Assembly (NCBI RefSeq): GCF_030013205.1
Contig: NZ_CP122648.1
Origin: Escherichia coli
GTDB lineage: Bacteria > Pseudomonadota > Gammaproteobacteria > Enterobacterales > Enterobacteriaceae
DNA length: 64,000 nucleotides
Reading direction: 5' to 3' (one strand)
Position 1 is the first letter of the stretch. Each line of letters starts with the position of its first letter. The position numbers are program-made. Of this stretch, positions 30,001 to 45,000 are shown piece by piece.

Positions 30001-33000
30001 GGTTGTAACAAAATTTTTAATGAATATAAAACCATGGTCAGTCCATGCTTATATGCAGGACTTATCACCTTCTTATTAAGTCGCAATGTCTCATGGAGGT
30101 GCGAAGATGCTGCAATATTACAGGCGAGAAGGGGAACCAAATTTTGCCCACCTATTTAACACACCCCTACATTATGAACAAGGAATTTAGGATTTTTATC
30201 ATTTATTAAAATGTTTCCTACTTGACTATTAAGACCAAAAACAATTTATCAATTGATTATTTCCTTGTAAAAAAAGAACGTATGACTATGTTATTAATAA
30301 ATAAAACACGCAAATAATGGTGATGTTGTTTTGTGATTAACTATTTAAGTGCGGCATAATAAACAGGTTGACAATTTCTATGTAAAGAAGAGGAAAATAA
30401 TAAAATTTTAGCGGTGACTATTGAATGATATGATAGTTGTGGTGTTGATTATTTCTGGTAATGAATGCGGAATTAAATCTGGCCGGATTGTATTTTTGCT
30501 ATATCTATTTTTCAGGAGATTATTATTAAATAGAAAAATAACAATGGTGATTATCTCCGGTTGAGCTGGAGTCACGTATGCCAGCGAGTGCTTTCTTCCG
30601 GGCCTTCCTTCACTTCAGAGAAAGAGCCTATGGAAAAGAGGCAATCATCAGGCTCTTTTTGAGTCATATGCGCCGATAATCAACTGTCTTGAACGTAAAA
30701 ATTATGGAGCAACATGATGCTACGATTCATTTCACTCTTCGTTTTTTCTGAGCATTGCGTTCAGGATGGTCAGCAATTTACGCATACAGTCAACCAGCGC
30801 CACTTTTTTGGTTTTTCCGGCTGCTGGCAGATGCATGTAAAACGCCTTTATCACCGGATTAAACCAGGTTACCACAAGCGCTGCCATGTGCAGGGCTGCT
30901 CTTGCCTCCGTACGCGCACTGGCGTCGTTCGGCCAGCAGATATGTGTGGGATAACAGGGATGTTATGTGAACTGAACTGTGTTTTGTTAACGGGGGATGT
31001 TTATTGATGATTCGGGAGTGTTTAAGACCTGATGGCGTTATGCTCCCAAGTTTATTTTATATAAAGATCCAAAAGCAAAAACCCGCCTTGTGGGCGGGTT
31101 CTTAAGAATTAGTGGTGCCGGACTCGGAATCGAAAATTTCTTTTATCATATTGATATTAATATAATTTATTTGGTTTGATTAAAAATGCACCCTCAATTA
31201 TACCCGCAGTCCCTTTTGATATCGAAAGGGAATCACACTCGGGATCAGGCTGAGAGCACAGAAGGAAAGTACCTGGCTATTATATCGTTAATTCTGTCAA
31301 TCAGTTCCAGCCTTTTGAAAGTGATGTGTGCAGATCCCTTCTTAAAGTATTTAATGATGAACATCTCGTCTTCATAGCGCTCTTTACCCTGAACGGACTG
31401 GATGTGACCATCCAGACGAATAGTGATGTTTTCCCGGTTGTCGGGGATCGGTTTGCCGCTGAACAGATGTAGCATTCTTTCCAGGTCGACGAGTCGGTCA
31501 GTCTGTTGCCCGGTGATAAGATGAAACCCCCACCGGTCCCACCTCACTAGGTTGTTGACGATAATTTTACTGCCAAATTTGCAGGGGCAATTGGTTTTGT
31601 AATTCCAGTTCAGTCCCCTGAAGACGTTGATCACCCCTCGCTCAAACACCTCATCCTTATTCTGGTGTAGTTGTTCAAATGTGCTCAGAATGTTCGCTTC
31701 ACTGATTTCCGGAAAATTATCGTGCTCCAGTGACCGGTACCATGTATCACGGGCCTGTGCATCCATTAAGGAAAGCATCCCTGAACGTTGCATCAGGTCA
31801 CGCCAGATTTCGCGATCGAGATTGCGTGTGATGGCTTTCATTGCGGTTTCCGGTTTCTCCATCAGCCAGCAGCCGCAGCGAAAATCCTGTTTCATGGCCC
31901 AGTCCGGGGCGGCTTTACCGCCAATACTTTCTGTCATTGCTGATATTTCAGCCAGTTGCCGGATAAGTGTGTCGATTTGCAGCAGTGTACTCTTTCGTAC
32001 AGCCAGAATGTGGCGGATACTGGTTGAGCAGATAACGTCCGTATGCCCGGTGACCACTTCCGGACGGGAGATTGTGATGTCTGACATTATCGGTTTCCCT
32101 TTTGGTTTATAAACGAAAACGCCAGCCCTGTTCAGGCTGACGTCAGTGGAATGAAGTATGGTGAGTGATATTTACCGGTTCTGGTGCAGAAGCTGCAGAT
32201 GACGAAGAGTACGGACATCCTCCCGGGCCTGTTCGATACAGGGCAACAGTGCTACCGAATCCGTTTTATCCTCATCGTTGTCAAAGATAATTCCCGATTC
32301 GCAGTCGATATTGTCCTGCAGCCACGCAATGAGGATATCCAGCGCTGTTTCAGTGGTTAATGGCATCACGCTCTGTATCACTGTATTGTCTTCCGGCAAC
32401 TGATGAGGGCTGGCAGAAGTCGCCGGTGTTTCGGTAGCGTCACGTTCATTCACCACGCGGAGTGAATAACCGTTTTCAGCGACTTTGTTAATCAGTTCAG
32501 CGAGCTCAATACCATCGACGTCAACGACAATGCGCCCCATGTTCAGCGCCTGCGCATTAATGCTGTCGGCTTCCAGCGTCAGGGCCAGTTTCATTGTTTC
32601 GCCCCCGGATGTTTACCCAGGGTAATGTTATTTACCGTTCTGTAGTTGTCGCGTGTCATCAGGCCGGTTGCCCGGCGTGCCCGGAGGATATCAATACTGT
32701 TTATTAACTGAGAACGGGTACAGGCGCTGAATCCCGGCTGGTCGGTACGTACCAGTGCGTATTTTTCAACGAGAAAGTTCACCGCATCGCACAGTGAAAT
32801 GCCTGCCTCAATATGCTGCTCAATCACACGTTCATCAGCGAACGGTGTGTCATTCAGCGTAAGGCCGTAGTGCTGATCCAGCAGTCGGGTGAGCAGTGTC
32901 TGCCAGATTTCAACCGGAGACGGGCGTGAACTGGCCGCCTGCCCGGGTAATACAGGTAATGTTTTCATACTGAAGATTTTCCTGATATGCAGAGATGAAA

Positions 33001-42000: not shown

Positions 42001-45000
42001 AGCCTTGTCAGTGGGCTTTGCAGCCCGGATTTTTGCGTCAGTCAGTGCCATAGTTCAGCCTTCTGAATGCGTTAAAGAGGGTATAAATTCTGTCGAACTG
42101 GGGTATACCCGCAATTATACCCACACAATGGGGTTGATGTGGGGGGAATCTGGTTGAGTTCGGTAGAATTGATTTGGAGGCAGAACGCTTAAATTGTGGC
42201 GTTCTGAAACGAAAAACGGACCTCCGTGGAGGTCCGTTGATATGAATTTGGTGCCCGGACTCGGAATCGAACCAAGGACACGGGGATTTTCAATCCCCTG
42301 CTCTACCGACTGAGCTATCCGGGCAACGGGGCGCATTAAACCTGATTCGCCTCGTCTCGTCAATCAAATTTCTTCAATTTACTGCAGACTGCACAATCTA
42401 TCATCACTTTGCCGCTATTGCACGCATTGTCAGGCAAACCAGGCGGTCCAGGCGGCGGAAAGCGGCATTGCCAGAAGGAGTGCTGGAAGCATGTTGACCA
42501 CCGGGAACATTTTAATGCCACAGATGCGTAATCCGGTTGCCAGCAGCAATAAACCGCCTACGGCGCTGAAGTCTGCCATCATCGACGGTGTGGTCAGCGG
42601 TAATATCAGCGCGGCAGCCCACGCCAGCGTTAGCTGGATGATCAGTAATGGGATACTAATTACCGACACCGCAATACCCAGCGAGCAGGCGAAGATCATC
42701 GCCGTAAAGAAATCAAGAAATGACTTGGCGATTAAAATACTCGGATCGCCGGTCATCCCTTCGTTCATCGCCCCGAAGATCCCGGTGCCGCTGGCGCAAA
42801 ACAGGACAATAATCGCGACATAATTCTGAATAAAAGATTCATGCGCTGGCTTCTTACGTGAGTGGCGAAACAGATTTTGTGCTTTGGTGACCGCGGTATT
42901 GACGCCTTTTTCCAGCAGACAAATTTCGCCGATTAATGCACCGAGTAAGGTTGCTAAAACCATCGCCGGAAGGTTGGCGCATTTCACCACCAGTAAAATA
43001 CCAATCCCCAGCGATGCCAGACCAAAAATTGATGTCATGGAGACGCGGATACGTTCCGGTAAGCGTTGGCTAAGGAGTGCACCGAGAACGCCACCCAGTA
43101 ATACTGCACTTGCGTTGATAAAAGGACCGATGACCACAAGAGTTCCTGTTAGCTGCATTGTCTGATTTTCTTATTATGACCGTTTGGCACCTTCGATGGC
43201 TTGTTTGTTCGCAAAGTCCTGGCTTGCACGCTCTGGTGAAAGGTGCCATGATTGCGCGAATTTTCTCCTCTCTGTACGGAGTTTGCCCGATGCACGCCAC
43301 CTCCTTACATTCTCTCGCTTATCGCCGTTTCGCGCGAAACTCCTCCCCTTTTCTGCTCATGCGGTGAAGTTAACGCACGCTCACTGCAGGACAACAGTAA
43401 AATCAGAGCGTTTCTGCTTTTACTGATGTCTGGCGGTCGGAGCTGGTGACCAGTTTGACCCATATCTCGTGGGGCAGGGTTTTTCACCTTGTCCGGTATT
43501 CTTACTTCCCCGAAACGGGTTTTGCGCTTATGAAATCAATGAATATTGCCGCCAGTAGTGAACTGGTATCCCGACTTTCTACTCATCGCCGCGTGGTGGC
43601 GTTGGGAGATACTGATTTTACGGACGTCGCGGCAGTCGTCATTACCGCTGCGGATAGCCGCAGTGGCATTCTTGCGTTGCTTAAGCGCACCGGTTTTCAT
43701 CTACCGGTGTTTTTGTATTCCGAACATGTTGTTGAATTACCTGCGGGCGTTACGGCGGTAATCAACGGCAACGAGCAGCAGTGGCTGGAGCTGGAATCCG
43801 CAGCCTGTCAGTATGAAGAGAATTTGCTGCCACCGTTTTATGACACGCTGACGCAGTACGTTGAGATGGGCAACAGCACCTTTGCTTGCCCTGGACATCA
43901 ACATGGTGCGTTCTTTAAAAAGCATCCTGCCGGACGCCATTTTTACGATTTCTTTGGTGAGAACATCTTTCGCGCCGATATGTGTAACGCTGACGTAAAA
44001 TTGGGCGATCTGCTTATTCATGAAGGATCGGCGAAAGATGCGCAGAAATTCGCAGCCAAAGTCTTTCATGCCGATAAAACCTATTTTGTCCTGAACGGCA
44101 CATCGGCAGCGAATAAAGTGGTGACGAATGCGCTGTTAACGCGTGGCGATCTGGTGCTCTTCGACCGTAACAACCATAAGTCGAATCATCACGGCGCGCT
44201 GATTCAGGCGGGGGCGACGCCGGTCTATCTGGAAGCTTCACGTAACCCGTTTGGTTTCATTGGCGGTATTGATGCGCACTGTTTTAATGAAGAGTATCTG
44301 CGCCAGCAAATTCGCGACGTTGCGCCAGAAAAAGCTGAGTTGCCGCGCCCGTTTCGCCTGGCGATTATTCAGCTGGGAACCTATGACGGCACTGTCTATA
44401 ACGCCCGCCAGGTGATCGATACCGTTGGGCATCTGTGTGATTACATTCTGTTTGATTCCGCGTGGGTCGGTTACGAACAATTTATACCGATGATGGCGGA
44501 TAGCTCGCCGCTGCTGTTAGAACTTAACGAAAACGATCCGGGGATTTTTGTGACCCAGTCGGTGCACAAACAGCAGGCGGGATTCTCACAGACGTCGCAG
44601 ATCCATAAAAAAGATAACCATATCCGCGGACAGGCGCGTTTTTGCCCGCATAAGCGGTTGAATAATGCCTTTATGCTCCATGCTTCTACCAGCCCGTTCT
44701 ATCCGCTGTTTGCTGCACTGGACGTTAACGCCAAAATTCATGAAGGGGAGAGTGGGCGTCGGCTGTGGGCGGAGTGTGTTGAGATAGGGATTGAAGCGCG
44801 CAAGGCTATTCTTGCGCACTGTAAGCTGTTCCGCCCGTTTATCCCGCCCGTTGTTGATGGCAAATTGTGGCAGGATTATCCGACATCAGTGTTAGCCAGT
44901 GACCGTCGTTTTTTCAGTTTTGAGCCGGGGGCGAAGTGGCACGGCTTTGAAGGATATGCCGCGGATCAGTATTTTGTTGATCCGTGCAAGCTGTTACTCA

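Follow-up and report, generated by a model that had tools for sequence, protein, structure and literature searches.

A small, decayed P4-integrase island at pheV of Escherichia coli, acquired independently of the adjacent capsule locus

The stretch of Escherichia coli DNA analyzed here comprises 64,000 nucleotides of contig NZ_CP122648.1 (assembly GCF_030013205.1) and is referred to below as the window. It contains an integrative element of about 11 kb, situated between the tRNA-Phe gene pheV and a kps capsule locus, with a gsp operon farther out. We conclude that this region is very probably a small, decayed member of the GI-pheV family, which includes pathogenicity island (PAI) V536, also called 536_GI-pheV, as well as UMNK88_GI-pheV and REL606_GI-pheV (Nhu et al. 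2024, PLoS Genet, PMC11537424), and that the kps locus beside it is a separate insertion. The region has every sequence-level feature by which a GI-pheV is recognized: the locus, the integrase, the att repeats and an empty site in other genomes. A preliminary description of the window had proposed a P4-integrase island with its integrase next to the tRNA gene, bounded by a direct repeat of the tRNA 3′ end from which one base is missing. It had also placed kps and gsp outside the repeat, held that the capsule was not brought in by the element, and called the interior mosaic and partly decayed. All of these proposals are borne out by the evidence presented here.

The integration target of the island is pheV, a single, intact gene for tRNA-Phe(GAA) (ARAGORN; Rfam tRNA, 68.3 bits) that has the same sequence as pheV in K-12. 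The 3′ end of this gene occurs twice in the window, once in place (attL) and once as a distant copy that is one base short (attR), and both repeats derive from the last 23 bp of pheV, as in the GI-pheV family. So delimited, the island spans positions 31113-42324 (11,212 bp, with 11,114 bp between the repeats). The gene yqgA (42430-43137) lies beyond pheV; the island is thus located 3′ of pheV and beside conserved yqgA, which is the GI-pheV locus. The borders and the elements nearest to them are as follows.

42249-42324, minus strand: pheV, tRNA-Phe(GAA)
42249-42271: attL, the last 23 bp of pheV, reading TGGTGCCCGGACTCGGAATCGAA on the plus strand (repeat comparison)
42215-42238, minus strand: island-borne terminator hairpin, AACGGACCTCC-ACGG-AGGTCCGTT followed by Ts (terminator scan)
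40789-42051, minus strand: P4-type tyrosine integrase (intP4), 420 amino acids, apparently intact (Pfam Arm-DNA-bind_3, Phage_int_M and Phage_integrase)
31113-31134: attR, a 22-bp copy of the pheV 3′ end minus one G/C (repeat comparison)
31065-31112, minus strand: displaced native sequence from downstream of pheV, with a terminator hairpin at 31076-31104 (terminator scan)

On the plus strand, attR reads TGGTGCC-GGACTCGGAATCGAA, with one C of the CCC in attL absent; on the tRNA strand, it reads TTCGATTCCGAGTCCGG-CACCA. The exact 15-mer core, GGACTCGGAATCGAA, is present at only two sites in the window, attL and attR, and its chance expectation is 0.1 matches with 2 mismatches permitted. When the whole window was scanned on both strands with the 23-mer and the 22-mer, no further att copy was detected: no other site surpassed 16/23, the level of shuffled sequence. 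The same scan revealed no outer repeat within the window that brackets kps or gsp. The sequence immediately outside attR is identical to that downstream of pheV in K-12 at 48 of 48 positions. Because these 48 bp constitute the native pheV terminator, the repeat belongs to the displaced original end of pheV, as expected of attR. This segment is chromosomal, not part of the island, and marks the true outer edge. At the opposite end, the island's own hairpin takes over from the native terminator after integration; the same hairpin follows pheU in K-12, beside the integrase remnant yjdQ.

As the preliminary description had advised, we compared the locus with genomes in which pheV is unoccupied. 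The collection searched consisted of 5,426 complete E. coli genomes, and the query was a synthetic empty site in which window positions 30300-31112 were joined to 42249-43050 (1,615 bp; the island and one repeat copy removed). The full 1,615 bp was recovered as a single uninterrupted BLAST piece, at 99.3-99.6% identity, from 209 genomes. In one of them, strain ST2747, the annotated gene order is gsp, yghD, kps, an IS110 fragment, pheV and yqgA, with no integrase. The match in these 209 genomes shows that the 11.1 kb was inserted with single-base precision at the 3′ end of pheV; the same flanks surround an unoccupied pheV, as is characteristic of GI-pheV as a discrete insertion. The exact occupied junction of the window is present in 524 genomes. 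In the junction search, the classes of partial matches break exactly at 31065 and 31134, i.e., at the two predicted borders. The window comes from a pig-associated chromosome; its positions 30500-43000 are 100% identical to ETEC4067 (NZ_CP122685.1), whose RefSeq record supplied the layout and the pseudogene annotation, and to six related swine isolates.

A distance of 197 bp separates the start of the integrase's open reading frame (ORF) from the 3′ end of the tRNA gene. All three of its Pfam domains score above the cut-offs, and its N-terminal domains match solved structures of CP4-like integrases. The translation contains the catalytic motifs RSSE, HGFR and AAY, supplying the Arg, His-x-x-Arg and Tyr residues of the P4-integrase subfamily; these residues were assigned by eye, without a curated alignment. 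At the nucleotide level, the integrase region is 95.6% identical to that of UMNK88 and 96.0% identical to that of Sakai, which agrees with the tRNA-adjacent intP4 of at least about 94% nucleotide identity that typifies GI-pheV.

The relationship of the island to its neighbors depends on the following features of the flanks.

20-9492: gspD to yghD (gspM) (RefSeq)
10545-29921: group-2-type kps capsule cluster, with a serotype-specific middle between two copies of the insertion sequence (IS) IS1 (RefSeq)
30732-30914: IS110-family fragment, between kpsF and the native pheV terminator (RefSeq)
42430 onward: yqgA, speC and other core genes (RefSeq)

The kps locus has borders of its own. The block (9493-31064) begins 48 bp past the original end of pheV (31064/31065), terminates at the yghD stop codon (9492/9493), and stands in place of about 100 bp of K-12-type spacer at yghD. 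Neither a repeat nor an integrase was observed at either of these borders. The IS110 fragment is also found in the empty-site genomes; hence, it is part of the kps flank rather than of the island. With respect to presence and absence, K-12 has neither island nor kps, whereas ST2747 and 208 other genomes have kps but no island. UMNK88 has a 38.9-kb island but no kps; that island closes with the terminal yee gene module, the attR and the 48 bp seen in the window, followed directly by the K-12-type spacer and yghD. Both island and kps are present in the window and in the 524 genomes that share its exact junction. Given that all four combinations exist, the island and kps were acquired independently.

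A different interpretation would be that the island and kps, perhaps together with gsp, constitute one composite pathogenicity island that was acquired jointly at pheV. The island and kps are, after all, physically adjacent, and the IS110 fragment sits between kpsF and attR; moreover, PAI V of strain 536 (PAI-536-pheV) has been tabled as 80 kb including the K15 capsule (PMC7545054). However, in a composite island, kps would be found inside the att-bounded unit, and here it lies beyond attR and the native pheV terminator, which separates the two. No att-like copy occurs at the kps/yghD end or elsewhere in the window, 536_GI-pheV has itself been delimited at 48.8 kb by the same attR (PMC11537424), and the four combinations just described are all found. 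Joint acquisition is already contradicted by these observations, and we regard it as highly improbable. It might also be argued, given how short the repeat is, that it is a chance match or, as the preliminary description had considered, a piece of some longer, unrelated conserved sequence. Yet about 0 matches of 22/23 with an exact 15-mer core would be expected by chance, and the boundary agrees base for base with the empty-site genomes and with K-12. A longer conserved sequence does exist at attR; it is the displaced end of pheV and is therefore not unrelated. An origin of the repeat by chance or from unrelated sequence is thus refuted, with a negligible probability left to it. The separation of the capsule locus from the island helps to define what “the pheV pathogenicity island” of pig-associated E. 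coli comprises. The island's borders are fixed at 31113 and 42324, and the significance of this beyond correct annotation is small.

The interior of the island is a mosaic in which the GC content swings from 37% to 60%. Proceeding from the integrase toward attR, it contains the following features.

39089-40692, plus strand: phosphoethanolamine-transferase/sulfatase-family pseudogene, two ORFs matching EptA_B_N and Sulfatase (RefSeq, “frameshifted”)
37756-38313, plus strand: Ail/Lom-family outer-membrane beta-barrel protein, cargo (Pfam Ail_Lom, 3.5e-23)
35969-37425, minus strand: ISEc20 (IS110 family), 1,457 bp, with its transposase at 35998-37194 (IS-only matches and RefSeq)
35601-35984, plus strand: DUF7828/zinc-ribbon protein, 3′ end cut by ISEc20 (Pfam)
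34866-35435, plus strand: YagK/YfjJ-family (“inovirus Gp2 family”) protein (Pfam YagK_YfjJ_C, 2.2e-46)
33728-34860, no strand: decayed, poorly coding stretch (RefSeq, BLAST breakpoints and three-way junction alignment)
34465-34662, inside the decayed stretch: hypothetical ORF, 65 amino acids (RefSeq)
33971-34146, inside the decayed stretch: Hha/YmoA pseudogene fragment (RefSeq)
33875-33876, inside the decayed stretch: deletion junction with GG microhomology (three-way alignment with UMNK88 and ETEC1701)
33814-33885, inside the decayed stretch: tail of a radC/JAB gene, its last ~70 bp (RefSeq)
31245-33727, minus strand: terminal yee module of CP4-like islands (Pfam, RefSeq and UMNK88 match), made up of the next five entries
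33506-33727, minus strand: DUF987
33058-33426, minus strand: CbeA/YeeU antitoxin (Pfam CbeA_antitoxin, 5.4e-55)
32591-32968, minus strand: CbtA toxin (RefSeq annotation; WP_000854821.1, an accession shared with UMNK88)
32172-32594, minus strand: truncated DUF5983 fused in frame with DUF957
31245-32087, minus strand: DUF4942

The limits of ISEc20 were taken from the IS-only matches, which span query positions 170-1626 of window 35800-37900; the homology of the interrupted DUF7828 gene to other genomes ends at ~35972. In other E. coli genomes, homologues of the phosphoethanolamine-transferase gene are found without the frameshift, with about 94% identity. The genes for CbtA and CbeA (YeeV/YeeU) are adjacent and represent both families of a predicted type IV toxin-antitoxin pair. 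The preliminary description had designated 33728-34860 as ORF-free. The stretch is indeed poorly coding, but it does hold ORFs, all of them 50-87 amino acids long, and RefSeq places in it pseudogene fragments and one hypothetical protein of 65 amino acids. The small ORFs scanned from this stretch had no significant Pfam match, and Rfam returned only tRNA for the island, the decayed stretch included.

The decayed stretch bears the mark of a deletion. UMNK88 matches the window from attR through the yee module up to 33880, ~70 bp before the radC/JAB stop, and the sister strain ETEC1701 matches it from 33875 toward the integrase. At the window's junction, ETEC1701 holds an extra 5.3 kb that includes an AlpA-family gene (Phage_AlpA, 2.1e-08) and a GTPase gene. 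From these breakpoints and the GG at the junction, it follows that an internal deletion removed a segment that reached as far as the radC tail and included the genes for the excision factor and the GTPase. By analogy with UMNK88, it probably removed flu/Ag43 as well. Of the 19 island ORFs scanned with Pfam, none matched Phage_AlpA, and tblastn with the AlpA-family protein of ETEC1701 gave no significant match in the island; likewise, no transfer or replication functions were found on it. The island therefore differs from an excision-competent element, which would encode a cognate AlpA/Xis recombination directionality factor. The decay of ETEC1701 is complementary: the yee module, attR and the native pheV terminator are gone, and the sequence rejoins that of the window at 30965, for a flank loss of 147 bp that includes about 100 bp of the kps flank. 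The excision factor was thus deleted in one lineage and attR in the other, and the pair affords a clean, small example of island erosion and fixation. In the wild-boar O139:H1 strain W13-16, the integrase-proximal half (33875 onward) is joined via IS1 and IS3 copies to an ssrA-adjacent island; this arrangement indicates a large IS-mediated rearrangement.

The base that is missing from attR raises a question of its own: is the short form peculiar to this strain? It is not; it is the standard attR of the GI-pheV class rather than the product of decay here. The identical attR is listed for 536, APEC O1, S88, H10407, UMNK88, REL606 and others (PMC11537424, Table 1), and it is common to GI-pheV of phylogroups A, B1, B2, D and E (PMC11537424). 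It stands beside both kps and non-kps flanks, as the window and UMNK88 demonstrate. The same 22-bp variant is also present at the pheU locus of CFT073 and S88, at the DUF4942 end of the island there, where its neighbors are the hairpin and the integrase remnant yjdQ, both found after pheU in K-12. K-12 pheU itself reads GGG; it already shows the trace of an earlier island, over which newer islands have integrated. The occurrence of the variant at pheU makes an origin of the one-base difference in the element's attP more likely than decay. The short form probably represents the sequence of that attP, which would have GG in place of the tRNA's GGG. As for the fuller proposal, namely that the GG originates in attP and that strand exchange takes place within the terminal 7 bp of the tRNA gene and not in the T-loop, we judge the chances of its being correct to be about even. 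If true, it would explain how pheV stays intact while the displaced copy is one base short, and it would locate the cleavage site of this common integrase. A search of the openly accessible literature for a sequenced attP of a pheV island turned up nothing usable.

Alternatively, the base could have been lost by mutation after integration, through decay or stabilization of attR, and would then not be a feature of attP. The T-loop, which corresponds to the 5′ end of the 23-bp identity block, is the classic crossover sublocation of tRNA-targeting integrases. A crossover there would make the 3′ part of the distal copy chromosomal and, originally, GGG. In addition, substitutions in attR have been discussed as possibly stabilizing (PMC11537424). 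Such a mutation would nonetheless have to account for the same variant at the separate pheU locus, which has a K-12-like flank and reads GGG in K-12, and for its spread among the phylogroups and flank types named above. Further, most other attR variants in Table 1 differ from the tRNA 5′ of the final GGCACCA, the pattern expected if that side came from attP; EC958 is an exception, with an extra C-to-T change within GGCACCA that the authors describe as shared by a subset of ST131 (PMC11537424). We thus consider a mutation after integration to be possible, but somewhat doubtful.

We infer the following sequence of events. A circular element with a P4-type tyrosine integrase would have recombined its attP with the 3′ end of chromosomal pheV. 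With integrases of this type, the tRNA-end copy carried by the element restores the gene, and the original end is displaced. Here, the element's copy would keep pheV intact and its hairpin would end the transcript, with this junction becoming attL; the original tRNA end and the native terminator would have been pushed 11.1 kb away, with that junction becoming attR. The group-2-type kps locus represents an independent insertion that occupies the DNA between yghD (gspM) and a point 48 bp downstream from where pheV originally ended. Once integrated, the island would have lost most of its interior by deletion at the 2-bp microhomology, a copy of ISEc20 would have inserted, and the phosphoethanolamine-transferase gene would have gained its frameshift. 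Remaining on the island are the intact integrase, both att sites, the Ail/Lom cargo and the CbtA/CbeA end module.

Today's island is, in all likelihood, a remnant that is largely fixed and predicted to excise rarely if at all: it lacks an excision factor and transfer functions of its own, and its copies in seven related isolates are 100% identical. Could it still be active, excising and reintegrating by means of its own integrase and of excision factors that other CP4-like islands supply in trans? In favor of this are the intact integrase and the presence of both att sites; some of the 209 empty-site, kps-positive genomes could be products of precise excision, and several other places in the source genome match parts of the island. 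Crosstalk between islands, moreover, has been reported in strain 536 (PMC7545054). On the other hand, the island has yielded neither an AlpA-family gene nor functions for transfer or replication, its complete identity in seven related pig isolates fits vertical inheritance, and the sister lineage ETEC1701 lost attR by deletion, not by excision. Continued activity accordingly strikes us as unlikely. Several points do weigh against our interpretation of the region as a fixed, eroded GI-pheV. The case for integration, and for little or no excision, in this strain is built on assembled sequence, and the catalytic residues of the integrase were read by eye, not from a curated alignment. Factors from other islands can assist the integrases of related islands in trans, to which the crosstalk in strain 536 also pertains; as such help is possible, immobility is not proven. 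Finally, the longer ancestral island was pieced together from UMNK88 and ETEC1701, and in no single genome was it seen intact.

Islands of this kind, their attR sequence, and the presence of cargo beyond attR are already known, the last exemplified by the core of the enterocyte effacement locus (LEE) in strain 12009 (PMC11537424). The small point added here is that the same 22-bp repeat variant exists at pheU. The island shares with other GI-pheV the yqgA-pheV locus, intP4, the 23-bp attL, the identical attR, and a modular, IS-ridden interior; its terminal yee module is 98% identical to that of UMNK88. In contrast to the GI-pheV of Table 1, it is only 11.2 kb long, less than the smallest attR-bearing island there (REL606, 15.1 kb; PMC11537424), and the flu/GTPase/AlpA part is missing from it. 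Only 22 of the 5,426 genomes have its integrase-proximal cargo (Ail/Lom and frameshifted phosphoethanolamine transferase) in complete form, and pig isolates give the closest matches to the full island.

Similarities to the K-12 islands CP4-57, CP4-6 and CP4-44 are apparent from what is established for those elements and from the Pfam and structural matches of the island. They, too, have a P4-type integrase with arm-binding, central and catalytic domains and an end module consisting of CbtA/CbeA with DUF987, DUF957 and DUF4942, and an AlpA-type factor occurs in the sister island of ETEC1701. The present island differs from them in its attachment site, pheV, and in having no AlpA gene left in this copy. 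SpLE3/OI-122 of O157:H7 (the Sakai GI-pheV) occupies the same site and has the same integrase, with about 96% identity over the integrase, pheV and yqgA. No other nucleotide similarity was evident, however, and the O157 island contains espL2, nleB, nleE and efa1 and has no attR. Homology between the cargo of the present island and that of OI-122/SpLE3, which has a pagC-like gene at pheV, was considered and rejected, since only the integrase and the flank match.

Two minor observations concern the capsule cluster. In ST2747, kps has decayed: it comprises a fragment of kpsT and a frameshifted kpsD, and the serotype-specific genes are absent. In the middle of the kps cluster of the window (12381-21276), two IS1 copies lie in direct orientation, 8,189 bp apart, and between them are genes for glycosyltransferases, a beta-Kdo transferase and a hypothetical protein of 1,043 amino acids. 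This IS1-flanked segment resembles a composite transposon and could allow the capsule-type genes to be moved or swapped.

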